Assembly (NCBI GenBank): GCA_000442015.1
Contig: KE560848.1
Coordinates: 1-64,000, forward strand
Direction: 5' to 3'
DNA from: Rozella allomycis CSF55
Lineage: Eukaryota
DNA length: 64,000 nt
Shown piece after piece: positions 19,545 to 64,000 of the stretch. Below the pieces are notes generated by a model. That model was not told the origin of the DNA, did not search any database, and saw only the letters and a list, made by a program, of their open reading frames with translations. Made by a program: the position numbers and the translations under genes. How positions within the stretch are numbered: position 1 is the stretch's first letter; each line of letters begins with the position of its first letter.

Positions 19545-21650
19545 ATGAAGGAACCTGTGTCTTTAGAAGAGCTATTGAAGAAGAAAGAAGAAGAAGAACG
19601 TTTGAACGCTAAAGTAAATATTTTATACCCACTTGATAGCCTAAATATATGTCTAAAGAAGAGAGAATGAAAAGAGCACTAGAAGAGAGGAGGAGAGACG
19701 CTGAGAAGAAAAGAAATAATTTAGAAGCGTTTAAAACACAAAATGAACAAAGCAAGCTACCAGAGCCATCACCTACTTATGTTAAAAACACAATACCAGA
19801 GAAGGAGTTGCAAGCCATAAAAGCAAAGTATTTGGGGCTGGAAACTAAAAACAAACGAAGGAGATATTCAGATAGAAGATTTGTGTTTGAATGGGCGGAA
19901 CACGAGGATACATCTGTTGAATCAAATCCATTGTATGCAACGAGAAAAGATTACACGTCGTTTGGCAGGGGCCATACCGGAGGAATTGATCCCAATGAGT
20001 CAAGTGCAAATAAGGATGAATTTTACGAAAAATTAATGGATGAAAGAAGGACCGATGTAGAAAAAGAGAGAGTCAAAGAACTGGACGACATTAAAAAGAT
20101 GAAAGAAAAGAAGAGATTACGATTTGATGATCGTCATTGGACAGAAAAGCCTTTGGAAGAAATGAATTCACGAGATTGGCGTATTTTAAAGGAAGATTAT
20201 AGTATATCAACCAAAGGTGGTTCAATTTCTAATCCGCTAAGAAACTGGGATGAAGCGGAATTGAATTATAAAATAAAAAGAAAAATTTATGACTTGGGTT
20301 ATGAAGAGCCAACTCCTGTGCAAAGGCAATCGATACCGATAATTTTGAGTACCCGGGATATGATAGGGATAGCAGAAACTGGGTCTGGTAAAACTTTGGC
20401 CTTTTTGCTACCGATGATCGAGTCTATTATTAATATAAGAAAAGAAGACAACGATTCTTTTAATAATGGGCCATTTGCGTTGGTACTTGCACCAACTAGA
20501 GAATTGGCGCTTCAGATAGAGCAAGAAGCCAAAATGTTTACTGAAGCATTAAATTTAAAAACTGTAGCAGTGGTTGGTGGGCATATAATGGCAGAACAAT
20601 CGTACAATTTACGTGGAGGCGTTGATTTGTTAATTGCTACCCCTGGGCGTTTAAAAGATCTATTGGAGAGTCACGTTGTTGTTTTAAATCATTGTTATTT
20701 TGTTGTGATGGATGAAGTAACAAATTATACGAAATTAAATAGGCTGATAGAATGATTGACATGGGGTTTGAAATTGATGTAAATTTCATTCTGGACAACC
20801 TTCCCGCCTCCACCCAAAAGCCTGAAGACAAAGCAGAGGATTTAAAATTTTTAAAAAATAAACGATTTAGACAAACAACAATGTTTTCTGCTACGATGCC
20901 ACCTTCGGTTGAGAGAATGGCCAAAAAGTAATTGATCACTTATTGAAATAAAAGATATTTAAAGAAGCCTGCTGTTGTAACGATTGGAATCGCTGGAAAG
21001 GCAGTTGACAGAATTGAACAGAAAGTTGAAATGATGAAAGAAGATCGCAAATGGTATTTTTCATTATTTCTAGTTATACAAGGGATAGACTTGTTCGCAT
21101 TCTTAATGGAGGGTTTGAACCTCCAATTATTGTTTTTGTGAGACAAAAAAGGACTGTTGATTATTTGACGAGGCAATTAGAAAAACTGAATGTAATTGTT
21201 TGTGTGAAATTTAATTAGTTCAAAGTGGTTGGTTTGCATGGAGGTAAAACGCAAGATCAAAGAGAAAAAAGTTTGGATTTACTACGCAAAGGTCAAAAGA
21301 ACATTCTTATTGCCACTGATGTGGCTTCCAGAGGGATTGACATTAAAGATGTATCCCTGGTTATTAATTATGACATGAGCAAAACAATTGAAGGTAATTT
21401 CTATTCGTTACTTTAATTTGATTACACCCATAGAATTGGTCGAACTGGGCGTGCCGGAAAAGAAGGAAAAGCGATTACTTTTCTCACAAATGATGATCAA
21501 GAAACGTTTTATGATCTCAAATTAATGCTACAAGCTTCTCCTATTAGTCAGGTGCCTTCCGAGTTGAAGAATCATGAGGCTGCACGTTATAGGCCAGGAA
21601 TAACGGTAATCAAAAAGAAAAGTGAAGAAACAATTTTCAAAGATGAATAA
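19545..21650 (+). CDS. PRP28: Pre-mRNA splicing DEAD-box helicase Prp28/DDX23
   Basis: [58 protein letters not shown] across an intron, and [12 protein letters not shown]. Confidence 0.95.
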
Positions 21651-43993: not shown

Positions 43994-46397
43994 ATGGCAG
44001 GCAAGCATTGGTCTCTTGATAACGACGAAGAAGACGGATACGAAGTTAACCATGACTCAAATGAAAATAAAGCCAACAATCAAAACGATGAAATAGACCC
44101 TTTGGATGCTTTTATGGAAAATGTTACCCAAGAAGTGCAACAGTTGCTGTATGAAGACTCTATGAAACCAAAGCAAAACAAAAAGCTTAAAGACAGAGAC
44201 GAAGATGAAGAGTTTGTTCCCGAAAAGAGCAAATATGAAATAGAAGAAGAACTTTTCAAGTAAAAAGATGCAAATGTTGTCATTTAGTATGAGGAGGTTG
44301 CAAAAGAAAGATGTTATAGCGGTGGATCACAATCAAATTGAATATGAACCGTTTAGAAAGAATTTTTACATTGAAACGGCTGAAATAGCTGCTATGGATG
44401 ATGACGATGTTTCTATTCTGAGAGAACAAATGGATGGAATTAAAGTCAAGGGGGTTAAATGTCCCAAACCAATAAAGAAATGGAGTCAATGTGGATTAAA
44501 CTTGAAAATTCTGAATGTCATTAAAAAGTTGGAATACGAAAAACCAACACCCATTCAAGCACAAGCGATTCCAGCTATTATGTCAGGCAGAGACGTGATT
44601 GGTGTAGCTAAAACTGGTAATTCATTTTGATTTTATTAAAAAGGATCTGGGAAAACAATTTCCTTTCTTTTGCCAATGTTTAGACACATTCTAGATCAAC
44701 GATCTTTGCGACCAACTGAAGGTCCAATTGCGATGATATTAACACCCACGAGAGAATTAGCGGCACAAATTTACACTGAATGTCGAAGATTTGGAAAAAT
44801 TTTAGGAATCAGATCTGTGTGTGCATATGGAGGTGCGCCAATAAAAGAGAATATTAGTGAAATGAAGAGAGGAACAGAAATTATTGTTTGTACTCCTGGT
44901 AGAATGATTGATTTGCTAACTGCGAATAATGGAAAAGTGACTAATCTTAGAAGAGTTACGTATGTTGTTTTAGATGAAGCTGACAGAATGTTTGATTTGG
45001 GATTTGAACCACAAGTTATGAAAATTGTAACGAATGTTAGACCAGATTCTCAAAATGTTATGTTTTCAGCTACATTCCCACGCCAAATGGAGGCTTTAGC
45101 AAGAAGCATTTTAAAGAATCCAGTTGAAATTGTTGTGGGTGGAAGAAGCATTGTGTGCAACGATGTCACCCAGTACATTGAAGTGGTAGACGAAGACCAA
45201 CGCTTTAATCGCCTGCTGATGATACTTGGAGAATGGCAGGATGTGACTGGAAGAGTTTTAATTTTTGTTGATACTCAAGACAGGGCTGATACTTTGCTTA
45301 GAGATTTAATGAAAAAGGGTTACCCGTGTATGTCTCTGCATGCTGGCAAAGATCAACTTGATAGAGTTTCTATTATAACTGATTTCAAATCTGGAATTTG
45401 TAATCTATTAATTGCGACATCTGTTGCTGCTAGAGGTTTAGACGTTAAAGAATTAAATCTCGTGATAAACTTTGATTGTCCAAATCACTATGAAGATTAC
45501 ATCCATCGCGTTGGAAGAACAGGCAGAGCTGGCAGAAAAGGAACAGCGTTTACTTTTATTACCCCAGACCAGGAAAAGTATGCCCCAGACCTTGTTAAAG
45601 CATTAAAGTTGTCAAATACGCCTGTGTCAGATGAGTTGCAAAAATTGGCTGATGAATTTAAAGAACAAGTCAAGAAAGGAAACGCTGAATTTTCAGGCAG
45701 GGGTTTTGGCGGGAAAGGGTTGGAAAGAATGGATCAAGAAAGAGAACAAATGAAAAGAACTCAAATTCTTGCTTATGGAGAAGAAGGTGATGATTCCGAT
45801 GAAGAAATGGTTGAAATGGATGGTGATGTGAAAGTTGTGTCTCGAACTACTGGTCAAGTTGTAGACTACAGTAACAAATTAATTTAAAAGGAAAAGGCAA
45901 AAAGGAAACGGAGGATGAAACTGAAGATTTCTCTGAAGCAATTCAAAAGTCTAGAGAGGTTATTAACAGAATAAATCAAAGAATTAAAGAATATTTAACA
46001 CAAACTCATGGGAGAGATGTTGCTGAAGAAATGCTCACTGCTAAGGAAGAACAAAGAAAATACATTTGTGAATTTGACATTAACGATTACCCTCAATATT
46101 CTAGAATGAAAATTACTAGCAGAGTAAACAATAAGAATATTAATAAGTTAGGATAGTTTGGCAGTTCTATTTGATACTTGCCGCGCTACAGTTACAGCCA
46201 GAGGCTCCTACGTTCCACCTGGCAGACAGCCTAAGCATGGAGATAGAAGATTGCATCTTTACATTGAATCTGATTCTGAATATAATCTAACAAGGGCACG
46301 ATCTGAAATTAAAAGAATCCTTAATGAAGCTGCCTTGGAAGCAATTGAAATGGGCAACATTGAATCCGTCGGCGGTGGAAAATATTCAGTTCTTTAA
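43994..46397 (+). CDS. PRP5: Pre-mRNA splicing DEAD-box helicase Prp5/DDX46
   Basis: [47 protein letters not shown] and GKYSVL. Confidence 0.95.
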
Positions 46398-46424
46398 TAA
46401 ATTATTTTGGAATCATTTTTTCTT

Positions 46425-47555
46425 TTATTTTCCCTTTTTGAGAAACGGCGTTATTTCTTCTCTTGAAAAGATTCTTGTCTTCTCTTTAAGCATTTTAACA
46501 ATCTCAGCACAGGAAGGTTCTTCTTCTTTTGGTCCAATGTGAACCCAATAACTGGCTAATTTCTCATAATTCTTTGTCATTAACAACCACCAAATATAAT
46601 CATAACTAGTTTCCTTGAACACTATCGCCTTGCTTTCATAATACGTTTGCCTATTCTGAATGAGATTGGCGGGATGTTCAAGATAATGTCTCAATGGATG
46701 CAAATGATGAGACGCATGATACCCATCATTAAAACAGTCTCTATTATACACACAGTGCACTAATGTTATAGAATTCTGCAATCCACCACCAAGTGGGTTA
46801 GTTCTTTCAAGAAATGAATGCTGAACCCAATTCCCTTGCATCATTCCAAATCTAACAATATTAAACGGCAGAATAAAAGACATAAAAGTAGCCATAAAAT
46901 CAACATTCAAGGCCAAATGGATCATTGCCAAATAACAGCTGATTTCCATTGCCATCATTCTCATCGGTTCCTTCACCCTTCCTCGCTTCACAAAGAACAT
47001 TGGTAGCTCAAACCATGCAAGAAAGTAGAAACGAAAAAAATAACACACAAAATGAAAGAAATTGTCTCTTTGGTAAAACAATGTGCATGAAAGATCTTCA
47101 GGTCCATTATCTGTAACATGATGCATTTTCAAATGATGCCAATAGTACGAATACGGCGTTTGTCCAAAGAAAGGTGCTAATAAAACAGGTATCAAATGGT
47201 TCATAAATCCAATCTCTTTTTTAAAAAGTGCAGAATGTGAAGATACATGCAGAGCAAGAACATAGCGACGGGTCCAAACAGCTAACAATATTGAATGCAA
47301 AATCAGGTGAATGAAACTTACCTTGTATGCATACATTATTGCGGATGAAATCGGTGCAAGTAGCCCTACTAGCGCTACTGTTACCACTTCAACATCTAGT
47401 GGGTGATTAATAAACTTGCGAACGAACTCTTCGTACTTGTTCTGAGGCGGTGGTATCTGCTTTTCTTTCTGGGTATTGATTTGCCAATTTTCATCGATTG
47501 CTTCTAGTATATTGTCATCTGTCACTTCTAAAATGTCCACTGATCGAGGAGGCAT
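46425..47555 (-). CDS. Membrane fatty-acid desaturase-superfamily protein
   Basis: Histidine boxes HVSSH, HHLKMHH, QH and HASHH; intronless. Confidence 0.88.
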   Translation of the reverse strand: MPPRSVDILEVTDDNILEAIDENWQINTQKEKQIPPPQNKYEEFVRKFINHPLDVEVVTVALVGLLAPISSAIMYAYKVSFIHLILHSILLAVWTRRYVLALHVSSHSALFKKEIGFMNHLIPVLLAPFFGQTPYSYYWHHLKMHHVTDNGPEDLSCTLFYQRDNFFHFVCYFFRFYFLAWFELPMFFVKRGRVKEPMRMMAMEISCYLAMIHLALNVDFMATFMSFILPFNIVRFGMMQGNWVQHSFLERTNPLGGGLQNSITLVHCVYNRDCFNDGYHASHHLHPLRHYLEHPANLIQNRQTYYESKAIVFKETSYDYIWWLLMTKNYEKLASYWVHIGPKEEEPSCAEIVKMLKEKTRIFSREEITPFLKKGK

Positions 47556-47631
47556 GGCGGGTGGTGGCTTTGCAAATCACACTTTTGTAAACCATTACAA
47601 ACTACAATGAAAAATTTATTAATTTGCAAAT

Positions 47632-50073
47632 CTATGTTGTAGAATATCTGGAAGTCATATTTGGGGGTTTAGTCAAAATGGCTTGAGGCGATTCAAATAG
47701 GCGGCTGCATTCGTCAACAAGAGACGCTGATATTTGTTTGCATCCTGTTACATTAAGAGAAAGTAAATTTTTCGCATAATTTATAATCGAGCGCACTCCA
47801 CTATCAGTAAGACCAACACACCCTCGCATGTTCAATGTCTTTAAATTTTTAAGTTTCATTGCTATTAGTTCTACTTTGTTATCGGTAACAGAAGATCCAC
47901 AAAATGAAAGGTCTAAAGATTCCAAATCAAAAGAGTCTGCAATGATAGACAATGCCTCTGGACTAAGGGAACAACAAAATGACAAGTTTAGTGTCTTAAG
48001 ATTTGGCATACCTTTTGAACAAGCAGATATTGCAGCATCAGTAAGAAACGAACAATCCGAGAGATCCAAGTCAGTCATACTTTGCATCAGATTGTTATCT
48101 AGCTCATAAAACCCAGCGTCACTTATTCCAGTACATCTTTGTAAATTCAAGGATCTCAAATTTTTGCCCATCTGGCAAATAAATAGCATGGTATTGTTTG
48201 TAAGGAGCTTGCAATAAGAAAGTGACATGCTTTCTATCAAAGGCGCGTTTAGCAGTAAAGCATGAATAGCGTCATCATCAATTTTACGACAATTAGATAA
48301 ATTAATTGATTTCAAAAGGCCGCATTTCTGGGCCAAATATGAAACTCCAACATTTGTTATATCCCAGCATGAATGCAAATCAATCGTTTCAAGATTTTCA
48401 AGAAAATCTGCACTGTCAATAATAGCTTTATCGTTAATTTGGTAACACAGTCTTAAAGTCAGGTGTTTTGTATGGGGTGAAAAATGTGAAACTGTATTAA
48501 TGAAGTCTTGTGGAGTGATTTTCTTGTTGATGGGAACAAAGTCTAAATTGTTTCCTGAATGCTCCATTTTGCTTCCACGAAACCACATTTGATTAATGCT
48601 TCTACAAATCAGCTTATCCTTTAAAGGAAGGAACTTTAATATATGGCTAATGCAAAGCTCTGTGTTTTCATTGGAGCCATTGTTCTTGGATGATATTAAT
48701 GAATTCTTAAGGGGACTAGAGTACGATGATAAGTTGTTTTTGGATGCCGCTAGGTTCGCCAATCTAGAATCCGCCCAAACCGCAACACCTCTATTTTACC
48801 ATCAAATATTTTACTCGCACGTCGTTTTAACGGGTTAAATGACAATGCTTCATTGGTAGGCATCAAGAAACCTGATGTTTCCTTGTTCTCGATTTTTGAC
48901 TCGATCTCAAATGGAACATCGATTTTTAGCTCAAAAGTAGGATGGTCGTTCGTCAACCCATTTTCACAATTTAAAGAGTTGTTAAGAGATGAATATAACT
49001 AGATTAAATGCAACCGAATAAGTTACACTGTGACTTGAGCCCATGGATATAGAATTTTCGATGGAACACATAGAGGATAAAACTTCTTTCCCTCGATCCA
49101 TGTCATTTAAAATATGCCGTTTAATAACTAGCATAAAGCAATCCGTTGCCGCTACGGCATTATAACAGTAAGTTTCTGAGGCTAATGATCCTCCGACAAA
49201 TGAATCATATTTAAACATTTTGACAATGTTTTCATTGTTACTTTGACTAATAAGATCTACGGTGCCATCCAAAACTATAAATACGTTTGTCGCAGGATCT
49301 GACACACTAAAGATGATATCATCAGCCTTGTATTCTCTTTTTTCAAGTATGTCGCACAAGCTTTTCAAGATTGAAGAATCGTTAATAAAGTTCAAGGCTT
49401 TCACCTCTCAAGTTTCTAAATTACTCTTACTTTCATTAAACTATCAAGAATAGTTTCTTCATTATTCTTTCTTATTCCGTCAGCCCCATTTTTTCTGTTT
49501 TGAACCAAATCGTACCTTTCCTGTGCTATTTTCTTAAAATGAGCTTCGATTTGCGGTTCAGATGCAAGCATTTGCTGCAAATGTCCCCCAGTTAAAGCAC
49601 TTACAATGCATTTTGTTTTAGCAATGACAGATGCCGTTCTTGGACAGTCAAAAAGTAGAGCAAGCTCGCCAAAGAATAGTCCTTGCTTTAATTCAGCCAA
49701 TATGATTTCAGAGTCTCCAGCGATGACATTAACAGTACCTTTGCTTAATTGATATGATGAATGAAACCTTTGAGTAAAAAGAACATGGTCTTTCCATGAT
49801 CACCTTCTTGAATAATAGTGCTTCCAGGCTGATAGATGCGGACATTCATGGTAGATGCGAGATTGAGAATAAAGTCTTCTGAAGCTGTCGAGAACATGTC
49901 ATGAGACTTTAAATTGGTCACCAATTCAAACATCCTAGGAGAATCTACAGGAATGTCTCCAACGGGAGAAGCTACTATCGTTATGAATTGTGAAACACAT
50001 TACATTTGGCCTTTGACAAAGATATACTCTTGGTTTTGGCGAAATTTGTCTGAACTTCAGGAGGTTTCTGCAT
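47632..50073 (-). CDS. Cyclic-nucleotide-binding domains plus F-box plus LRR protein
   Basis: IIQEGD...FFGELALLFDCPRTASV, a degenerate second cNMP domain, F-box-like HILKFLPLKD...RSINQMW and Cys-containing LRRs. Confidence 0.88.
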
Positions 50074-50452
50074 TGACAGCGAAATATCTCCGATACTATT
50101 GAAATCACATAGATTAAAATAATGAAAAGTATTTTATTTAGTCATTTTCAGTAAAACTAAAGAATCATCTAATGTTAGAAAAGTTCTTCAAAAGAAATAG
50201 TGAAAATAAAAGTTTCAGGGAAGTCTTCCGTGCATCGTGTTCGGCCAAGAACACTCAAACAAGAGGTGTCAGAATATTTGGCAAAAAGCACTCATCATTT
50301 AAAAAGAAGTGTTCAAAGTTGGATCGCTTACCGATTGGAATTTACAACAAGGGTTGAAAAAAAATTGCTGAAATTTATACCTAACATCAGCCACAGTAGT
50401 TAATGAAGACTTGAAAATGTACCACTTTAATGTCCATTAATCTGAATATAAT

Positions 50453-52958
50453 TTATTCATCCAAATCTTCTTGTTCTTGCAAGCGATCATGTATATCATG
50501 CGTTGATCTGTATCGACTCCAGGTTGTCGAGTGAATGTCATTTCCTGTTTTTTGTTGTTCATAGTCATTTAATGGCCTTATCATAAAAGGAACATGAGGT
50601 GATTTTTGACCCCTTGAATAGACCAAGTCGCGCTCATTGCACAGAGTTTGATATCTATATAGCACTCTAATGTTTGGTAGGTTGGTCTTCTTAATATCTA
50701 TAAAACTATTTTTAAAACATTACCATTTCCGCGGGGACCTTCGAGGTGAAAATTGTGACCAAGCCATCTCTTTTTCATGCTTGCCTCAAATCCAGACTGA
50801 AGGACGCTGTTTCTGGAAATCTCACTCATATCAGCAGAAGATAATTTCCAAATCTTGGGTTGTAAATACAGTTTTGGATTACTTGGGCAGCTACAGAATA
50901 TTCTTCAATTAATGGTTCCTTTGTGAAATGAAATTGAAGAGGATCATCAGTAGATAGAGAAACATTTAAACCCCTTTGAAAGAATTGAGGAAACGGATTT
51001 CTTTCATACGTCAAGAAAAGAGCATTGTTGCTTAATGGTGACATTGCTATTCCAATTTGTTTTAAATAGAACAAGTATTGCAATACTGGAACTTTCCTTA
51101 ACAAAATTCCATGAGCGATAGAATGTGAAGTCAAGAAACTGCATGATAAATGATCTGTGTCCCCAGCTTCTCCGCAATGTGGCCTTAAAGTGAAGGTATC
51201 AAATATTTGAGATGAATTAAAATATTACTTAATCCTCTTGCTTTTCTTAATTGATTCAATGAGCAGATGTTAGCATACATGTAATAAATGTAATAAGAAT
51301 ATGGGGGATTCATTTTTGACGTCCACATTTTTGGTAGTGGAAATCTAGTTTATGAATCTCATACTAATAATACTTTTTATGAATTCTCCTTTCTGGTTTT
51401 GATTCATCATCGACAGAGTCGAAACCAACCACCCTTTTAAGGAAAATAGAGAGCTTTGGATTGGAAGCGGGATTCATGGAAACTTCAAAAAGGGGTTCAA
51501 ACACATCTTTCATAATCAGTTAATGCACTTTACTTGATATGAATTCTTCAAAGTTTGACAAAACTTGGCTTGATTTGTAAACACTAAATAGCCTGGGAAC
51601 CTGTACAAGCCACCTGACGTTATCGGAAACAATTTGGTTGTCACAAATCCATGCCGCCAATTTTGTCCATTCATCTTTTGATTTGCCATAAATCGATATG
51701 CGATATTCAGCCATTTGGTATTTGCTAGCCTCCAAGTCTGAAATCACCTCCTTTGTTAATTCTGCTAAATATCTCCCCTCAATATGATTATCAGTCTTTA
51801 AGAATATTTCTCTCAATCTACTTTCACCTACAGGATTATACTTTAAATTAAAATTATCGAATCTATGAAATGAATCTTTATGCGCCTATTATTTAAGCAG
51901 TAATCAAGTCTTACATGCATATCCAATGTATCTATACTTAAATCATACGCTGTCAAGTTCAAACTCTCAAATACTTGTTCCAACGTCAAATACTTGTTGT
52001 CTCTATAAATCACAATGTCCTTTCTTCATTAATTTCTTTTACTTACTTTTGGAAAAGATTTAATTTTTGATTTTATAAATCTCAATAAATGCTTCAAATT
52101 CATGCAAGACGAATGATGTACGTGAGTGTCAACTTTTCTCACATTATAGAAATCTCTATGGGGAACTCTTTTTTGCGCCCTCATTTCTTTATATTCATTT
52201 AACATTAAATAAAGATTATATTGAGATTCTAAAAACCTTAACCTTCTAAATGAAAATGATTTAGCAGGACCATCGGAAATAACGGACAGTATGAATTCAT
52301 TATCTTGATAATATTCCTTAATGGTTGGCACTTCAAACACCTGCTTCTTCTTCATGTGATCATAAATTCTAAACACTCCATCTTCATCCATTTTGTACAT
52401 CCAGTTATGTTCAAGCGATATATGTGGTAACATATCACATTTATTAATATCATACGACGCCAAACAATATGATTTCCCTCTATTCCTGGTTTGATCTTCA
52501 GCAAGGGGTGGTTCGATCTCCCAATCATCCCTGTCCTTGGGATTATCAAACTGGCTGCTCAATTTTAAATACTTATCCCTCAAATCCATGCATTTTATTA
52601 AACGGTCATATATATCTTTCACCTCTTCTGTCACTTCAAGCGTCTCTATAATTCACAAATCTATTTCGACTTACCTAATATGCTATTGTCGTCCAAGTCC
52701 AAATTTTCCATGCTCAATTCAAAATCATTTTCACCGGCCTGCATTTTTGGTGTTTGGTTCAAAAGCATTCTTATTCCTTCCTACCTCTTTGAAAATATGT
52801 TCAATTACATTTCCAATTTGTCTATCCATATGAGCCGAAAAGAATGGGGTCTGATCAGGTACCAAAAGGTCAGGCTCGCTCAAATTTATAGATGAACTGC
52901 TCTTAAATACATCATTGTCTTGATGTGCAGAAATCAATTTAGTGACTCGGTCTGTCAT
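50453..52958 (-). CDS. AMD1: AMP deaminase
   Basis: [31 protein letters not shown] and [11 protein letters not shown]. Confidence 0.97.
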
Positions 52959-53103
52959 TAAGAAATTTCAAAAATTAAGAATGTTCTTTTTGGAAATATT
53001 TTTTCAGAGGGCCCACGTTGTATTAATGAATTGAACATTTTCATGAATAATTTGCAAGGGTAAAAATCTCGGTAGATCCACAAAAATTCAAAACTTAGCC
53101 ACT

Positions 53104-53871
53104 ATGTTTTTTGCACGGCTAGCGATTTTACTTGGGACTGTCCTTAGTACGCCTGTATTAAGACGTACTCTTCAGCTTGATCATTATGGCTTTGAAATAA
53201 CGGTACTAGAGAACTTGTTAAAAGAAGTACCCTACTTTGAAGGTACTATGTCCATTTGTAATTACAATTTAGATTTAATGGAGTCGAATGTTTCTACGTT
53301 CAGATATTGTGACCCATTGGAGTTAGATGTTGTATCCAAATTCAGGGAAAAATTGGTCGAGGATAGTGACTATAAAATCATTGCTCAAAACTTCTTAAAA
53401 TTAGAATCAAAATTAGCTGAAACCACATTATATTTAGAAAGATTTCTTAATTTATGCTTGCTCACTTTTGGTGAAATTTTAGAGGGCATAGATTTAAACA
53501 ATAGTTTGGACCCTGATTACTTATCCGACATACAACAAAAATTGACCACTGAGTATGAATTTGTAGATGGATTACTTCCTATTGTACTTCAAAAGATGTA
53601 CTCTAGATACGAGTCATCAAATTCAGAAGATAAAAAGTTGGCCATGATCAAAATTGTCGCTGAAAAGATGCAAAGAATATACCGCTCTTTTTTTATTTTG
53701 ATTTTCAGCGGTTTTTCTAGACTTAATTCACTTATTCGATTAGCTTTGATATCCATTCATAGGTCTAAACCTGATGAAAACGCAGTGAAAGAAGCTTGCA
53801 TTTTCGCAGGTTCGTTGAAAGAATTTTCAGAAAGTTTCCGTAGTGCGCATAGATTAGAAATAAATTACTAA
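53104..53871 (+). CDS. Putative secreted helical protein of unknown function
   Basis: Intronless 255 aa; signal peptide MFFARLAILLGTVLS followed by an LRR dibasic site. Confidence 0.7.
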   Translation: MFFARLAILLGTVLSTPVLRRTLQLDHYGFEITVLENLLKEVPYFEGTMSICNYNLDLMESNVSTFRYCDPLELDVVSKFREKLVEDSDYKIIAQNFLKLESKLAETTLYLERFLNLCLLTFGEILEGIDLNNSLDPDYLSDIQQKLTTEYEFVDGLLPIVLQKMYSRYESSNSEDKKLAMIKIVAEKMQRIYRSFFILIFSGFSRLNSLIRLALISIHRSKPDENAVKEACIFAGSLKEFSESFRSAHRLEINY

Positions 53872-53958
53872 AAGTTATGGCACACTTTATTGTATATATA
53901 TATTTCGATTTTTTGGGAAATAGAAATGACATGAAATACCCCGGTTAAACCGCATCTC

Positions 53959-54522
53959 ATGGAATATTCGCATATTACCCCAGTTGTCATTGCATTAATA
54001 CATAAATACAAAGAATTACGTAAAGATTATGTATGCACACGTCGAAGCAACTCAATAACCTGCAAAAAGGAAAAGGTAATTATAGAGACGATACAATCGT
54101 TGGAAAAAAGGACACGGGAAGAAAATGCCAATACAGTCAATGAATTAAAAAAGTGTTTCGCTGATAGTATTGCTTCATTAAGTACAAACTTTGACAGACA
54201 GATTCAACAAATACAAATGCAGATTACAGATATCAACGATCGTTTGATGAAATTAGAAAAGAAGGACAGCGAAGACAAATTACAATCAGATACCCAGAAA
54301 AACATTCCATTAGTTCAAGAATTGACTCAAAGCACAGAGCCTTTAGCAAAGATTAATAATTGCAGTAAAAAGAAGAAGATCGTAAGAAAAGTCAGGGTTC
54401 AAAAGACTAAAAAAGATTCCAAGAGAATAATACTAGCTCCTTCAGCTGATTTGTTAAGGGAATGCCAAGCTAATGTTCATTCAAGTGTAAATAGCTATGC
54501 ATTTTCTTCTGATGTATGGTAA
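53959..54522 (+). CDS. Hypothetical coiled-coil protein with a basic patch
   Basis: 187-aa ORF with a heptad pattern and a KKKKIVRK segment. Confidence 0.6.
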   Translation: MEYSHITPVVIALIHKYKELRKDYVCTRRSNSITCKKEKVIIETIQSLEKRTREENANTVNELKKCFADSIASLSTNFDRQIQQIQMQITDINDRLMKLEKKDSEDKLQSDTQKNIPLVQELTQSTEPLAKINNCSKKKKIVRKVRVQKTKKDSKRIILAPSADLLRECQANVHSSVNSYAFSSDVW

Positions 54523-54547
54523 TCTACATAAAATTAAATATGTACAT

Positions 54548-54950
54548 TTATTGTTGCTTTTCTTTCTCCGCATTGATTGCTTTCTTTTCTAAACCTTCGA
54601 AATCGTACGCACGAAACCTTTTCTGGGCTCTAGCTTTTTCAAGGTCGATCATTTCCTTTCCATATTTGTAATACTGGTATGCCAGATACGAAGATCCAAA
54701 TAGCACCATTCCTAGCTCAAGAACATATGAAAATCGTACCAATTCCAACATTTCTTGTCATTTTGTATCGTGTATAATAACTTTCGGCAACATAATAAGC
54801 TCCAAACAAAGAAATAATCAAGGGAGGTCCAAACATGCAAGGTAGACATGGCTCTGGTTTTTCAGCGGTGCTTTCACTTGCAACCTTTTTCATTTCTTTA
54901 AATAGAAGACCATCTTTTTCAGAAAGAGCATCTTTAGATATATGGGGCAT
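54548..54950 (-). CDS. Small 2-TM protein with CxxC (DUF4536/TMEM261-like)
   Basis: EPCLPC precedes TM1; a 28-nt intron joins it to GMVLFGSSYLAY. Confidence 0.55.
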
Positions 54951-55024
54951 TGATTGATATTTGATTCGAGAAATTTCTGTTTCCAGTTGGAATCAAAGAT
55001 TCATCATCCATTGTTGTTTATTTT

Positions 55025-55226
55025 TATTGGGCATTAAATCTAATCGGGTGCATTCCCCTTCTCATGAGGCGACTTAGGTGAGATACGTTATTTAACGTAT
55101 GTTTTATATCTTACTGGAATGAATTTCATTATTTCAGTGATAATTACAATATAAGAAAAAATTAAAAGGCGTGCGTATTCAAGGAATTGCATCATTTATG
55201 AGATATTCTTAAACCATGCCACATGG
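55025..55226 (+). ncRNA. snR30: Candidate U17/snR30 H/ACA snoRNA
   Basis: The 3' hairpin GGCGTG/CATGCC encloses m1-like GTATTC (55175-55180) and m2 AAACCAT (55211-55217). ACA is at 55221, an ANANNA H-box lies near 55151, and the 5' domain is structured. Confidence 0.65.
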
Positions 55227-55317
55227 CAGAAAAAGCAATTCAAAATTTGATACAAGATGGTCTAAGTGTTCTTAAATCATACATTGAAATCGACAAAAAA
55301 TTTTCGCTTTATTTTCA

Positions 55318-55566
55318 TTAGGGAGTCGGAAGAATGAGTAAGCCTGCACATATCGCCTGACATTTTCCAAAAGCCGCACTACAAGCTACGAGCGCCGGAG
55401 GAGCGCCCACACCCAGCGTTACTGTTCCGAATACTGCACCGGCTGCAGCGTAGCATGCAACAACTACAGCTGCGCAACCAGCTTGACATGTTCCGTAAGA
55501 AATTGGTCCTCCAAGTGCTAATCCAATTATACATAAGAGAAGAATCAAGGATGGCCGAATGTTCAT
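55318..55566 (-). CDS. Small secreted Cys/Ala/Gly-rich protein, copy 1
   Basis: Signal peptide, then GPISYGTCQAGCAAVVVACYAAAG...ACSAAFGKCQAIC...PTP. Confidence 0.88.
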   Translation of the reverse strand: MNIRPSLILLLCIIGLALGGPISYGTCQAGCAAVVVACYAAAGAVFGTVTLGVGAPPALVACSAAFGKCQAICAGLLILPTP

Positions 55567-55599
55567 GAATATTTGTTACCGTCACTGAAGCAAAGTAGG

Positions 55600-55687
55600 G
55601 TATATATATTGCCTGTTATCTGATTCAGATAATAAGATAAGATGGGCTCATCAACGAAAATTGTACTTATCTGATGTAGTTGACAGA
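55600..55687 (-). promoter_or_regulatory. GATA-rich promoter module with a TATA-like box, copy 1
   Basis: Palindrome TTATCTGA-T-TCAGATAA at 55616-55632, a further GATAAG, a second TTATCTGAT at 55667 and TATATATA at 55601. Confidence 0.7.
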
Positions 55688-56083
55688 TGCTGATATATTT
55701 CATACAGTACTTGTGGGATCTGTTATGTCCTTAATGATAAAAGTAAATACAAACACACCTAAATGTATTTCAAATTTTTTCTGCTAGATTAACAATTGTA
55801 CTGTGTACCTACTGTGTTAACATACTTGCAGCCGTCCCTACTCGAATATTTCTGTATCATGTGAATATTGAAATGATATGCATATTAGATATGATGGTAG
55901 TTATATTTATGTATGAATTACACCCGAAATGTTAGTATCACATCATAATCTCGTCTATATAGATTATGGATCTGGTACATTGACATGCGCAATTTGATTT
56001 GGATATGGCTGGCGATTCAAAGTTTAAATTAAAAAATGTGCAAAAAAGAATACTGAAATCGATGTAAGATAAGTCTATTTTTA

Positions 56084-56329
56084 TCATGGGGTTGGAATTA
56101 TAAGTAACGCTGAACATATTGCTTGACATTTTGCAAAAACAGTACCACAGGCTATGAGAGCGGGAGGCGAACCCAAACCGAGTGTCACTGTTCCAATTAC
56201 TGCTCCCGCTGCGTGGCACACAAAAACTATTGACGCACAACTCGCTTGACAGGCTCCGTAGGACAAAGGTCCGCAGAAAGAGAATCCAATGAAACTGAAG
56301 AGGAGGATGGATGGTCGAAAAATCATCAT
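56084..56329 (-). CDS. Small secreted Cys/Ala/Gly-rich protein, copy 2
   Basis: GPLSYGACQASC...CHAAGAVIG...ACGTVFAKCQAIC...PTP. Confidence 0.85.
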   Translation of the reverse strand: MMIFRPSILLFSFIGFSFCGPLSYGACQASCASIVFVCHAAGAVIGTVTLGLGSPPALIACGTVFAKCQAICSALLIIPTP

Positions 56330-56345
56330 TATACCAATAATGCAC

Positions 56346-56421
56346 GGGTATATGTGTCACTTTTTATCTGATTTAGATAATAAGATAAGATGAAAATTTA
56401 GTAGATCTGATATAGTTGACA
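56346..56421 (-). promoter_or_regulatory. GATA-rich promoter module, copy 2
   Basis: TTATCTGATTTAGATAATAAGATAAGATG at 56364, followed by GATCTGATATAGTTGACA. Confidence 0.7.
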
Positions 56422-56500
56422 ACCTAAAGGTCATTTTCATGGCCGCATGTAGGTTTTAAGTTTTAAGCTAAAAAATTGATGATAAAATGATGAAAGACTT

Positions 56501-56733
56501 CTATCTTCGAGTAAGATATATTGAATGAATTGCTTGACATTTTTGAAAAGCTGATTGGAGAGGGCGGGAGAAGCGGATACACAAAGAGTCACCGTCCCGA
56601 ATACTGCACCGGCCGCGGCGTAGCATGCAACCGCTACCGCTATGCAATTTGCGTGACAAGGACAACAACATGTACTGCAGAAAGTGAATCCAATGAAATA
56701 GACGAGGAGGACAATGTATGATCGAAAAATCAT
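56501..56733 (-). pseudogene. Frameshifted third copy of the Cys-rich secreted gene
   Basis: It aligns to copy 1 up to SPAL; the conserved AFQKCQAI continues in another frame (net 7 nt shorter than copy 1). Confidence 0.7.
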
Positions 56734-56774
56734 GTGAGTGTCTTTGTTCTTTATCGATAATCAACTGCACCATT

Positions 56775-56865
56775 GGGTGTATATGTGTCGCTTTTTATCT
56801 GATGTAGATAATAAGATAAGATGGAATACTAAAGCGAAATTTAGTAGATTTGATCCGATTGACAG
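56775..56865 (-). promoter_or_regulatory. GATA-rich promoter module, copy 3
   Basis: TTATCTGATGTAGATAATAAGATAAGATG at 56795, followed by AAATTTAGTAGATTTGAT...TTGACAG. Confidence 0.65.
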
Positions 56866-56964
56866 CCTAGTGTTTCGTGAGGTTCTCATGTTTTTCAAAA
56901 GAATTGTGATTTGTCAATAAACTCAATAAGTTATTAAAATCTATTTGATATTTATTTAGTTGGA

Positions 56965-59146
56965 TTAACATATGGCACCTACTACTTGATTTACAATAAA
57001 CATATGTACTTGTGAAAAAGGATTCTGATTTTGTTGAGGTTGAAATGAGTTTTGCTGAAACGGATTCGATTGATTTGCAGATCTTGGAATTGAACCATTG
57101 CTATTATTTTGTGGAACATTGGTAGTTGCATACATGGATGATGATTGGTAAGCAAAGCTTGTTTGAGCTTGATTATTAAATGAAGAGTTGTTTTGAGGAG
57201 GATTATTATTAAACAAATTATGCAAAGGGACATTTTGAGTTGCATTGACATTAGCAGATGGGAATGAGTTGAAGTTTAGATTGGCATTAATTGAATTAGA
57301 AGTGTTGAAATTGGTAGGAAGTGAATTGAAATTGTTAGACGAAAAGGGATTTGATGAAGGAGCGTTGGCGGTAAATGGATTGTTTCCCATTGTATTGTTA
57401 GCAGGTTGGTTGTTGTTGAAGAAGTTGTTATTATTGCTTGAAAAAATATTATTAGTAGCAGTAGTATTCATTCCTGAGAAATTGGAGGTCTGGGCCTGAA
57501 AAGAATTATTACTTGGCAAAGGAGGATTAGTAGGATTTAGCGCGTTGAATGGGGCCTGTGAAACCGTTTTAACTGATGGTTTCATTGGCACAAGATCTGA
57601 AAATGGATCTTTGTTAGGTGGATTGATGAATCCCTGGTTAGCAGTCGGAGCAATAAGTGGCACTGAAGGAGTCAACATATTTGAATTCACTGAATGGAAT
57701 GGTTGCATCTGGGACGAAGAAAATATATTTTGGTTGGTCGGCACTTGAGACTGATTGTTTGCGAATAGATCAAAAGGATTATTGCTGGAAATAGAAGCAG
57801 TCGGTAATGGTGCTTGTTGAATGTAATTAAGATTGTTTGGCATTGCGTTAAAATTGTTATTACTGACTTGATTGAAAGGGTTGAAATTATTTTGAACGAT
57901 AGCTTGATTACCAAAAGGATCATCTTGAAAGAATTGTTGTGTCTGACTAGTAAATGAAGACTCGACGATGGTTTGATTTTGTTGAGGTAAAAATAAATTA
58001 TCTTGTTGAGCTAATCCATAAATTATATCAAAAAATACCATGGAAATCAATTAATGCTTGTCTAGGTGGGCTTGATTGTTTTCTTGTTAATTCTTTTTGG
58101 TTACTTTCAAAGTTTTGTAAATATTCTGTTAGGCTATCAATTAAAGATGCAGGCGGCTTTATTATTTACTTCATTCACATTTACTGATTTGATGTCTGGT
58201 ATTTGTGTTGACAATCCGCTTTCAACTCTTTTAGCAACTTTAAAAAAGTCAATTATTTTATCAGTAACTTCATTAAACTGTTTGTAAAGCTCTAACGCCT
58301 TTTTAGCATCTTCCTTGGTCATTTCAAAGTATTTATCTTTTAAATTAAGAAAATGGTTTATAAGTTACCAAGTATTTTTATAACTCCTTCATTTAATGCA
58401 TGGTAAAGTTTTAATGAATCTTTAACGAGGAATTTAAAAGATTCCAAGGTAACCGCATTGTCAAGTTCATCCAAGTAATACTTTAATTTTAAGAGCATTA
58501 ACAAATTACTTTGCAATTAATCAATGCCTTCACAAGCCTATTGAGTATTTCAACGTGTTTAAACAGACCAGCAGGGATGCTCATACTTCTTAACGTTGAA
58601 GTTAAATCACCATTGTCGCGACAATAATCAATTTTCAAGTCTCTAAAGGAAAAGACTTTCTCCTCTAAATAAGCTGCATAAACTCTTATATTCTTAGCTT
58701 GTTCAACCCCTAAATTCTATCTTGTCCCTTATCATACCCGCTGGCGAACTGGTTTTATCTTTAAACGATTGCAAATTAAGCACTGTTGGTTGAGTGGCCA
58801 AATATCCAAGAACTCTATCACCAGCGCTTTCTCGTGATAAATGATGAACAAGAATTAATGCCTTGAAAACAATCTATAAAGAATTGAGTCATCTAAATAC
58901 CACCCAATTGTTCTCCTTCAATCTATCAGATATAAGTCTAAAAAGATCCGCCATTGCTACGCTTCTCGAGTTGGTTGCCACCAGAATTGCTACTATTTAG
59001 TGCGTCTATATTTTACATCGAACATGCTTGGCTTTCGGCGGAGTAATCTTTCGATTGCAGGCTTTGATCACAGCTACTTCTAAATCATTTTTAAATGCTG
59101 TAGCTGCTGTAGCCTTATCCTTTACGGAATCAAAGAAATTCGACAT
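56965..59146 (-). CDS. ANTH-domain clathrin assembly protein (AP180/PICALM/Yap180-like)
   Basis: AVIKAC...PPKAKHV, NWVIVFKALILVHHL and KYFEMTKEDAKKALELYK; N/Q-rich tail with many NPF/DPF motifs. The exact stop may be near 56980. Confidence 0.92.
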
Positions 59147-59331
59147 TCGCAGTGGCTTGGATACCAAAGGTTAAAACAGATAGATGAAATTGAATTAAGA
59201 GTTGTAATGCTAACCCCAATACAAAAATATTGATGCAATAAAAATCTAATTATTTTATTGGCATCAAAAGTGTAAATACGATTTATGAAAATTTGACCTA
59301 CTTCGGAATTGCGAAAAATATTGACTCGCGG

Positions 59332-59646
59332 ATGGACTTGAGTAGTTTAGATAATGAAATCAAACAAGAAGTGGCGTTGAACATAAATACTTTGTTAGTT
59401 AATGTAACATAGTTATGTCCAGCGAGATTTAGAAAATAGAAAATACATGTTTCAAGAGGTGCATTACTAAACCAGGCGTGTCTGTTTCGAAATCTGAGCA
59501 AGTAAATAACAAATATTCAATTGTTTTAGCTTTGTCTTGCAAAATGCACAGATAGATACCTAAACGCTTTTCAGGTAGTCAGCACAGCATTCTTTTCCGT
59601 TGCACAGCAGTTGCAAGACATGCAAGATTCCGAAGATGTTGTATAA
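59332..59646 (+). CDS. TIM13: Mitochondrial small TIM chaperone Tim13 (not in the ORF track)
   Basis: Three exons: ...IKQEVALNINTLLVN|KIENTCFKRCITKPGVSVSKSEQ|LCLAKCTDRYLNAFQVVS; twin CX3C motif. Confidence 0.9.
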
Positions 59647-59682
59647 ACAATAATAAATCTACTTTTGTCTGAGCCACTCAAT

Positions 59683-62153
59683 ATGATGCTTTTACGCCGC
59701 CCTATTATTAGAGAAAACATTTTGATTTTACTTAATAGATCATATTCCTCCTCCAAATGTCAATTGGGTGATGAATGGCAAAAATTGGCAAAGAAAGAGC
59801 TTCGAGGAAAGGATCCCTCGATCTTAACATGGGAAACATTGGAGGGCATTTCTGTAAAGCCGGTGTATACATCAGAAGATATTAAGAATATTGAACATGA
59901 AATACCTGGAAAGTATCCATACACAAGGGGTCCTTATGCAACTATGTATACTGTCCGCCCCTGGACAATTAGGCAATATGCTGGGTTTTCAACAGTTGAG
60001 GAGAGCAATGCTTTCTATAAGAGAAATTTAGAAGCTGGACAGCAAGGACTTTCTGTTGCATTTGATTTAGCAACACATAGAGGATACGATTCCGACCACG
60101 AGCGAGTTGTAATTATTTAACGTGCGTATCTATAAGGTAGGTGATGTAGGAATGGCAGGTGTTGCTATTGATTCTGTAGAAGACATGAAAGTAAATTTTA
60201 TTGAAAGTTGAAAAGTGATTCTATTTGATGGCATTCCTTTGAATAAGATGAGTGTTTCAATGACAATGAATGGTGCTGTTTTACCCATTTTGGCCATGTA
60301 CATCGTGGCGGCTGAAGAACAAGTAGGATTGAGATTTTTGAAGGATATAGGGCGCCAAGCAAGAAGAGTTGACTGGAACAATACAAAATGATATTTTGAA
60401 AGAATTTATGGTCCGAAATACATTTATTTATCCTCCCGAACCTTCAATGAAAATAATCGGTGATATTTTCGCATACACTTCGAAACATATGCCAAAATAC
60501 AATGCAATTTCAATATCAGGTTATCACATGCAAGAGGCAGGAGCAGATAATGCTTTAGAATTAGCGTTTACAATCTCTAATGGTTTGGAATATATTCGTA
60601 CTGGCATAAAAGCAGGAATGCATGTGGATGAATTCGCGCCTAGACTGTCATTCTTTTTTGGAATAGGAATGAATTTTTTCATGGTAAGTTCTATTAATAA
60701 ACTAGAAAGGAAATTGCAAAACTGAGAGCCGCCAGAAAGTTGTGGGCTGAATATGTTTCAAAAATGTTTGATGTCAAGAATCAAAAAAGCCTGCTTTTGA
60801 GAACGCATTGTCAAACATCCGGATGGTCATTGACTGAACAAGTATTCATTTATATATTAACGACAAAAGGATCCCTACAATAATATTATTAGAACAACTG
60901 TTGAAGCCATGGCTGCTACCCTCGGAGGCACGCAATCATTACATACCAATTCTTTTGATGAGGCAGTAGGCCTACCAACTGATTTTAGCGCCAGAATAGC
61001 TAGAAATACCCAGTTAATTTTACAAGAAGAAGCGATGATACCTAAAGTTGCGGATCCCTGGTAATTAAGAATGGTCATTTTTGCAGGGGTGGATCATACA
61101 TGATGGAAAATTTAACCGAAGAACTTTATAAAAAAGCTAAAACAATTATTGATGAAGTGGAAGAAATGGGTGGAATGGCAAAAGCCGTTGTGTCTGGAAT
61201 GCCTAAACTAAAGATTGAAGAGTCGGCAGCCAAGAGACAGGCGAAAATAGATTCTGGAGCTGGTAATTATTTGCCTTTTATTATAAAGAAACAATTGTTG
61301 GAGTTAACAAGTATCGAGTGGCAAAGGAAGAGAAAATAGAAGTTCTGCAAATTGACAATACAGAAGTGCGCAGAAAGCAAGTAGAAAGACTGGAGAAAGT
61401 TAAGAAAAATAGAAATGAAGAGAATGCCAAGAAAATTTTAGAAAGAATTACAAAGGCGGCAAAATCAGGTGAAGAGAATCTACTAAGTTTGGCAATTGAG
61501 GCATCAAGGGCACGATGTACCGTAGGAGAAATTTCATTGGCGCTAGAAAATGTAAAAAATAATTTTGCTATACATGTTAGGTGTGGGGACGCCATCAACC
61601 AGACATTCGTGTTGTTAGTGGTGCCTACAAAAATGAATACGGAGAATCAGAAGAAATTAAGAAGGCCATGAAAAGAGTAGAAGAATTTAATAATAAATAT
61701 GGGAGACGCCCCAGAATACTTGTTGCTAAAATGGGACAAGATGGGCACGACCGCGGAGCAAAGGTTATTGCCACTGGATTGAGTGATCTTGGATTTGATG
61801 TTGATGTAGGTCCATTGTTTCAGACACCATCTGAAGTAGCAAGGCAGGCGATTGATGCGGATGTACATGTTATTGGAGTTAGCTCGCAAGCAGCCGGGCA
61901 CAAGTCTCTTGTACCAGCATTAATTAAAGAGCTTGAAAAGGAAGGTATAAATGATAAGATTGTCGTTTGCGGTGGTGTTATTCCACCTCAAGACTATGAA
62001 TTTTTGTACAAGGTTGGAGTAGCAGCTATTTTTGGTAGACTTATCTTTGAGTGAATAATTATAGGGCCTGGAACTAAATTACCTGAAGCTGCAATAGCGG
62101 TGGTTCAAGCAATTGAAGAGAAAATATCCAAGATTCCAAATTATGTAGTGTAA
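59683..62153 (+). CDS. MMUT: Methylmalonyl-CoA mutase (adenosylcobalamin-dependent)
   Basis: [38 protein letters not shown] and the B12-binding DGHDRG...SSQAAGH...GG; presequence-like N-terminus. Confidence 0.97.
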
Positions 62154-62271
62154 TAAAATGAAGATGTTTGGTTATTTGACATTTTTAGTATTTTTTAGTG
62201 TATTTGTGATTTAATTCCAATTCTTTTATCATTCTAGAAAATTCCCTTTTAGAATAACCCTGGTTTAACCA

Positions 62272-64000
62272 ATGACCGTTAGTGTAGTACCACCAGTCCA
62301 AGTACCCAAGACAAAGACATTTCAAGATAAAGACAAGCCATCAGATGTAAGAAACAGCAACATTATGGCAGGCAAAGGTAAGGGGTGAAATTTTGATAAA
62401 AATAGGTAAGAATAAAATTGGAAAGAGAGGTAGCTATTGCTGATGCGGTAAGAACCAGTTTGGGTCCTAGAGGAATGGATAAGATGGTAATTGAAAATAA
62501 GTGAAAGGAGTAGATCCAAAAAGCCAATCAAGAGGTTGTTATATCGAATGACGGAGCGACGATATTGAAGGAGATGAGTGTTATTCATCCAGCTGCGAAG
62601 ATGATTGTAGAATTGTCAGCTGCTCAAGATGTGGAGGCCGGTGATGGCACTACCAGTGTTGTTGTGTTGGCTGGAAGTATGTTGAATGCGTGTGAAAAAT
62701 TGTTGAAAAAGGGTATTCACCCATCTGTTATTGCTGATTCTTTTATGAAAGCTTCGTACAAGGCAGTTGAGATTGTAAAGGAGATGAGTATTCCAGTGAC
62801 GTTGGATGATAGAGAGTCGTTGTTGAGGTCAGCGACGACATCATTGAACTCTAAGGTTGTGTCTCAGTATTCATCGGTGTTTGCACCTATTGCTGTAGAT
62901 GCAGTTTTGAAGGTGATTGATCCAAAGACAGCGAATAATGTTGATTTGAAGGATATAAGGTAATAATGTAGCAGCATGATAATAATTAGGTAATATGCTT
63001 GAAATTAGATGATGAAAGATGTGTTCAAAAGTTGGGAGGGACTATTGATGATACAGAGTTGATTAATGGACTTGTGTTGACTCAAACAGTCACCAAGTCA
63101 GCCAATGGGCCAACTAGAATGGAAAAGGCAAAGATTGGATTAATTCAATTTCAATTGTCACCACCAAAGCCAGATATGGACAATACAATTATTGTTAATG
63201 ATTATCGCCAAATGGATCGTATTTTGAAAGAAGAAAGAAATTATCTCTTAAATATTTGTAAAAAGATTAAGAAGAGTGGCTGCAACGTTCTTTTGATACA
63301 AAAAAGTATTTTGCGTGATTCAGTCACTGATCTCTCTTTACATTTTCTTTCTAAATTGAAGATTATGGTTATCACTGATATTGAAAGAGATGAAATTGAA
63401 TTTATTTCTAAAACTACTGGATGCAAACCAATTGCTGATATTGATTCTTTCACTGAAGATAAACTTGGCTACGCTGATCTTATAGAAGAAGTTCATGAAC
63501 ATGGATCTAGAATCGTTAAATTGACTGGATTAAAGAATCAAAACACTGGTATTCTATTTAATTCTATTTCAAATAGTTTCTGTTTTAATTAGAGGTGCAA
63601 ACCATCTCGTTTTAGAAGAAGCTGAACGTTCCCTTCATGACGCCTTGTGTGTTATCCGCTGTCTAGTCAAGAATAGAGCTCTTGTTGCTGGTGGTGGTGC
63701 TCCTGAAACTAGCATTTCTCACAAACTGTTAGAATACTCTAAAACTCTCACGGGAATGCAAGCTTATTGTTTTGAAGCCTATGCTGAAGCCTTTGAAGTT
63801 ATTCCTTACACTTTGGCTGAAAACGCTGGTCTTCGTCCTATTTCTATCGTCACTGAATTAAGAAATAGACATGCTAAAGGCCAAGTTAATTCTGGTATCA
63901 ATGTCCGCAAAGTAATATTCCTTTTTAATTAAAACAAAAGGGCACAATCACCAACATCCTCGAAGAAAATGTAGTTCAACCTTTACTAGTCACCACTAGC
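62272..64000 (+). CDS. CCT4: Chaperonin CCT subunit delta, 3' end runs off the window
   Basis: [48 protein letters not shown] and [10 protein letters not shown]. Confidence 0.97.

Follow-up and report, generated by a model that had tools for sequence, protein, structure and literature searches.

A 59-nucleotide tandem double intron in the CCT4 gene of Rozella allomycis and its probable stepwise removal

The DNA analysed here, referred to as the window, comprises the opening 64 kb of contig C500 in the assembly of the parasitic fungus Rozella allomycis (11.86 Mb in 1,059 contigs). At its end, on the forward strand, lies the gene for CCT4, the delta subunit of the chaperonin, which begins at 62272, reaches the last position of the window at 64000 and continues beyond it, as supported by protein search, homologue alignment and a processed copy. 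Its exons occupy 62272-62377, 62434-62486, 62514-62959, 63019-63548, 63577-63911 and 63941 onward. The 59 nucleotides (nt) between 62960 and 63018 are the subject of this report: they consist of two abutting mini-introns with a zero-nucleotide exon between them, which are probably removed in steps. Unit 1 is a 30-nt GT..TAG intron (62960-62989) and unit 2 a 29-nt GT..AAG intron (62990-63018), in exact agreement with the coordinates and lengths given in the first-pass annotation. The internal AG/GT junction spans 62988-62991, with the zero-nucleotide exon between 62989 and 62990. Both units carry T-purine-A at +21 to +23, namely TAA in unit 1 and TGA in unit 2, which places the probable branch A residues at 62982 and 63012.

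Excision of 62960-63018 as a whole yields an 11-residue junction peptide whose alignment to 10 fungal CCT4 proteins is free of gaps, which bears out the earlier claim that double removal gives a product colinear with CCT4. The processed copy of the gene (G000:C704, L002:1200-2050) lacks exactly the same 59 nt, as well as the first chain of the gene (28 + 28 nt, 56 nt in all, at 62378-62405 and 62406-62433, with an A at +23 in each unit) and the single 27-nt intron at 62487-62513, whose position is common to other CCT4 loci. The same copy keeps the single 28-nt intron at 63549-63576, with 3 of 28 positions different, pointing to a retrocopy made by reverse transcription of partly spliced RNA. 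A second processed CCT4 fragment (G000:C639, L004:1500-1635) is without the single 29-nt intron at 63912-63940. Homologues and the C704 copy together show that exactly 59 nt leave the CCT4 mRNA. Processed copies that retain part of a chain were sought for two other chain-bearing genes, and no copy of either was found. An RNA run compared with positions 44001-64000 matched in 35 partial pieces, of which 26 were less than 90% alike; they are sequence of other organisms and contain no junction at the 59-nt site, so that this run is evidence in neither direction.

Within the 59 nt, AG dinucleotides end at positions 12, 15, 30, 49 and 59, and GT dinucleotides start at 1, 9 and 31. The sole division into two introns of 26-33 nt is 30 + 0 + 29, and a micro-exon reading is therefore ruled out. 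The chance of an AG/GTA split into two introns in a random intron-like 53-61-mer is 0.44%. Each unit has the GT..AG ends and the genome-typical length and signals of a U2-type intron, and the scores of units 1 and 2 stand at the 83rd and 72nd percentiles of 550 single introns. The first AG in acceptor range (+26 or later) is the one at 62988-62989. When either unit alone is excised, the partial product meets a stop codon immediately past the junction. Predicted folding of the 59-nt sequence (z=+0.41) gives no signal of looping-out, and neither do chains at large, for which the mean z is -0.1 and z falls below -2 in 4 of 71.

The first-pass annotation had argued that a second case in the same gene makes chance less likely. 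This is correct and, the pattern being genome-wide, understated. In a count that uses no gene models, 156 TAGGTAA pairs have a spacing of 26-31, against 4 in the reversed control, and 5 have a spacing of 33-50, against 17 in the control. Chains lie within open reading frames: a gene on C332 carries three, of 6, 5 and 7 units, a chain on C719 has 12 units, and a gene on C255 holds several chains of 2-3 units. At the chain loci examined, removal of the whole chain restores continuous peptides; we take the genes concerned to belong to families such as SMC1, dynein and topoisomerase II.

Intron lengths were surveyed with a gene finder self-trained on 464 kb (C500 and parts of C36, C80 and C175, or 3.9% of the genome). 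Its first version had no chains, and its final version permits both chains and NG acceptors. Intervening sequences were counted in genes with log-odds of at least 25 and flanking exons of at least 30 nt (40 nt in the first version). In the first version, 534 of the 555 intervening sequences measured 24-34 nt. The final version predicted 577, of which 557 are single introns 24-34 nt long, one of them shorter than 26 nt, while the remaining 20 comprise 11 clean two-unit chains, one doubtful call of 76 + 28 nt, one plain 56-nt intron and seven plain introns above 70 nt. The 35-70-nt class in these 464 kb thus contains 11 two-unit chains among 12 members, the other being a doubtful plain intron. 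On these models, Rozella introns appear to be almost all 26-31 nt long, and chains would make up about 2% of intervening sequences, or an estimated 200-300 places genome-wide when extrapolated from 11 of 577. The 11 chains, which were not selected by motif, all lie in 6 of 146 genes, and some long genes carry 3-8 chains.

Most of the plain introns of 56-59 nt that had been called earlier became a normal-sized GT-TG intron plus an exon. GT-TG introns of 27-29 nt lie in the window at 60191-60217 (+), 21394-21420 (+) and 51200-51228 (-), and among 565 single predictions the acceptor ends in TG in 10 and in GG in 3. The public gene model P0001 (1,233 aa, 59332-64000, forward strand) joins methylmalonyl-CoA mutase to CCT4, misreads the first CCT4 chain and omits ten mutase residues; these residues, found in human MUT, are restored by the intron at 60191-60217, which skips an AG at +25.

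The second regularity concerns an A residue at +23. It is present in 628 of 875 single introns, against a background of 32% at +10 to +20, and in 33% of exonic pseudo-units (n=373). The peak stays at +23 across intron lengths of 26-30 nt, hence shifting from -4 to -8 when counted from the acceptor, and is therefore anchored on the donor; the +23 A is probably the branch point, set at a fixed distance from the donor. Chains with N or with units outside 24-34 nt were excluded from chain statistics, which cover 71 chains for identity and acceptors and 73 chains for the +23 A. Position +23 had no role in chain selection, and A occupies it in 47 of 73 first units, 49 of 84 middle units and 50 of 73 last units; for first units the figure is 26 of 36 in two-unit chains and 10 of 11 in unselected chains. 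Because the branch A of an upstream unit is useless in one-step excision, its retention in first units favours stepwise removal. As for the acceptor, an AG that ends at +26 or beyond is skipped in 6 of 865 cases (30.6 expected) and from +27 on in 0 of 424, and out-of-frame AGs, which are free of gene-model bias, are skipped in 3 of 589 (about 21 expected). The genome also contains a U2 snRNA match of 139 bits, above the cut-off (L220, G000:C424:25402-25592, reverse strand), and a U1 snRNA match of 69 bits, 0.5 bit below the cut-off of 69.5 (L221, G000:C36:99865-100023, reverse strand), both bearing what we take to be the canonical pairing motifs.

The junctions of two-unit chains are intact, yet the body identity of their units (0.548) is close to the background of 0.534. 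Internal acceptors are TAG in 146 of 158 cases, and in 41 of 53 once junctions selected by the search pattern are set aside; the figure for single introns is 511 of 915 (p=0.002). At the other end of the chain, last units terminate in AAG in 41 of 71 cases versus 280 of 915 single introns. The upstream exon ends in AG at 60 of 71 chains (10 of 10 unselected ones) versus 199 of 915 single introns, and the downstream exon begins with GT at 38 of 71 versus 88 of 915, both CCT4 chains being without this GT start. At one chain (L061:4329-4384, reverse strand) the downstream exon opens with a perfect donor-like GTAAG, so that the junction in the mature mRNA resembles a splice donor. The upstream AG and the TAG bias are compatible with first use of the internal acceptor and a rebuilt donor, although the AG may equally reflect the origin of the chains. 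An order from 5' to 3', with unit 1 removed first, is weakly favoured, at slightly better than even chances.

Chains also differ in base composition along their length. In chains of at least three units (L064, L129-L139), GC skew passes from +0.52 in the 5' units to -0.69 in the 3' units. At four-fold sites of the exons that flank chains it goes from +0.47 to -0.01 (p=0.002), and in single introns along genes from +0.20 to -0.16. Units 1 and 2 of the 59-nt pair have no such G-to-C gradient. A mutational asymmetry centred on break sites or on sites where replication forks meet is a guess at its cause.

Altogether, these observations suggest a mechanism in which the U2-type spliceosome of Rozella would measure from the donor, take as branch point an A lying about 23 nt away from it and cut at the next AG past that A, so that pieces of 26-33 nt would be removed. 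Two successive reactions on the CCT4 pair would release lariats of 30 and 29 nt. Were unit 1 to leave first, the terminal AG of the upstream exon would meet the GTAAT of unit 2, and a normal donor would be rebuilt. A stronger version of this mechanism, which we hold to be somewhat more likely than not, is that the spliceosome is incapable of excising more than about 33 nt at once, its branch point being fixed 23 nt from the donor. Stepwise splicing would then be the only route for longer sequences, and every AG/GT junction would allow further intron-sized duplications to be tolerated, giving rise to in-place arrays that reach 12 units or more.

Excision of all 59 nt in one step appears quite unlikely. 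Unit 2 would provide the branch-like TGA and terminal AG that such a reaction needs, the processed copy displays complete removal only, and a few plain long introns remain as predictions of the gene finder. However, unused internal junctions should decay into plain introns of 35-70 nt, a class that is nearly absent (1 of 12); the junctions and the first-unit +23 A persist in two-unit chains whose bodies have fallen to background identity; and there is no hairpin. It is also unlikely that both routes operate, with removal mostly stepwise and sometimes in one step, or with the units leaving in either order. Canonical sites remain after either order, and the stop codon in both partial products means that intermediates would be degraded and rarely seen, while the G-to-C gradient hints at a property of the chain as a whole. 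On the other hand, the contrast between TAG at internal and AAG at terminal acceptors suggests a preferred polarity, and the length rule leaves scant room for lariats of 59 nt. Least probable is an assembly artefact or a misread micro-exon. Stretches of N and repeated exon-plus-chain segments do occur near some chains elsewhere (L131; L061 = C255:3152-3365) and are possibly assembly or haplotype artefacts, but the window is without N, the two units are too dissimilar to be a miscounted repeat, no split into a micro-exon exists, and the homologues and the processed copy demand removal of exactly 59 nt.

Several points weigh against stepwise removal and limit the confidence placed in it. The two steps are predicted from genomic sequence, and the C704 copy, which reveals the end product rather than the route, carries numerous further deletions and could be older than one of the units. 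The length prior of the gene finder favours short introns, and the counts lean toward the length rule as a result; the seven plain predictions above 70 nt and the 76 + 28 call are putative, and at least the 133-nt prediction fuses two genes. The chain statistics derive for the most part from about 260 kb that were selected by motif, with only 11 chains unselected. A looser form of the junction pattern has no excess (507 matches versus 497 in the reversed control) and is uninformative, its reversed form presumably being common in coding DNA. Exclusion of AG past the branch point is a general feature of splicing, and the scarcity of skipped AGs would by itself leave room for one-step splicing through the branch A of unit 2. 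The G-rich to C-rich gradient, finally, runs along a chain as though the whole were a single polar unit.

The origin of chains is clearest in the longer ones. Adjacent pairs within chains reach an identity of at least 0.8 in 27 of 158 cases, versus 10 of 25,753 cross-chain pairs, and identity declines with distance along the chain; longer chains thus grow by local tandem duplication. A pair at 0.75 identity or more is found in 21 of 38 chains of at least three units and in only 2 of 33 two-unit chains. The GT starts of downstream exons would supply short direct repeats for slippage. Exon-derived ends or target-site duplications gave no signal at chains, one of 12 tests (on single introns) reaching p=0.0015. 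Two copies of a gene segment (L065:3939-4048 and L066:761-868) carry a four-unit chain at the identical site, with last units alike and upstream units different, which suggests turnover.

No homology was detected between units 62960-62989 and 62990-63018. Their body identity of 0.565 is at background level, a value attained by 41% of pairs drawn at random from chain units and by 34% of those drawn from single introns, and the loose similarity that the first-pass annotation saw between them does not stand out from it. The closest bodies to the two units among 1,144 units have identities of 0.74 and 0.77, and no second place for the 59-nt stretch was found in the genome; about 6% of it was analysed in seeking near-identical unit copies. 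For this pair, an old duplication and independent insertion cannot be told apart. The proposal of a tandem double intron therefore holds in part: the length rule, the +23 A of each unit and the unit scores argue for two abutting functional introns, whereas the suggested origin by tandem duplication is unsupported here. Across 80 CCT4 loci, the 59-nt site has no intron in 75, is unmapped in 4 (5 rows including the window) and has an unclear insert in one, and each of the 27 loci in which an intron was scored at the two upstream sites is continuous at it. The position of the first chain is common to 6 other loci, where it holds single introns. The position of the 59-nt intron looks lineage-specific in this sample, which contains no close relative (best protein identity 80%) and in which no locus matched the chain pattern tried.

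Recursive splicing is known for very long introns and is rare in yeasts. By analogy, the 59-nt pair may work like zero-nucleotide recursive splicing, in that AG/GT is present at 62989/62990 and no junction nucleotide is left in the mRNA. The ratchet points of Drosophila likewise bring AG and GT together within a single intervening sequence, at several places in an intron, with an acceptor signature above average; there, recursive introns are 11-133 kb long, their segments measure 2.6-64 kb, and recursion affects only 6% of large introns (10.1101/006163). In Rozella, by contrast, the segments are whole introns of 26-33 nt, nearly every longer intervening sequence is built in this way, with up to 12 units, and the chains are known here from genome sequence. 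At 59 nt the host intron falls short of the more than 11 kb of the Drosophila form, which is a trait of animal rather than fungal cases. Fungal introns made of two introns around a zero-length exon, as in Rozella, are described for BOT1 of C. neoformans (375 = 210 + 165 nt; 10.1101/224170) and SPNCRNA.445 of S. pombe (336 nt; 10.1101/226894). Such introns, detected by spliceosome profiling, are isolated, numbering one or two in a genome, and their segments run to hundreds of nt, unlike the roughly 2% of intervening sequences, the hard size window and the growth by duplication suggested for Rozella. The stwintrons of Aspergillus and Lipomyces (PMC7138796) resemble the chains in their short fungal U2 units, consecutive reactions and intron definition; in them, an intron sits inside a splice element of a second intron, or the two donors adjoin. 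A stwintron reading of the CCT4 pair was excluded, its units lying in series and each having an intact donor, +23 A and acceptor of its own.

Very short canonical U2 introns (median 22-27 nt) occur in myxobolid myxozoans and Dicyema, where weak A residues lying farther from the AG as introns lengthen have been read as the branch site (PMC13644364), as the donor-anchored A is read in Rozella. The main text of that paper does not contain the words 'recursive', 'tandem' or 'Rozella', and chains are undescribed in its passages. Tandem or segmental duplication can create a functional intron in one step (PMC3265369), and the enrichment of exonic AG before and GT after Rozella chains (60 and 38 of 71) is similar. 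In Rozella, however, it is intron units that duplicate in place, no exon-derived sequence was detected at chain ends, and the 59-nt pair has no detectable homology. A search for published descriptions of such chains found none in titles and the opening parts of abstracts, subscription papers and supplements lying outside its scope; 'Rozella' with 'recursive splicing' gave 0 papers, and a term search of PMC6009652 and PMC13685798 gave nothing relevant.

If stepwise removal holds, recursive splicing would be the rule at the short extreme of intron length, imposed by a size-limited spliceosome. The 59-nt pair would offer a test substrate for the measurement from donor to branch point and for the resetting of the spliceosome at an abutting site. 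To our knowledge, there are few clear natural cases of intron gain by tandem duplication, of which the longer arrays would be a recent record; in the novel reading, they would represent gain at zero distance in progress. Gene finders blind to chains give wrong models of Rozella genes, such as the P0001 fusion with its dropped residues.
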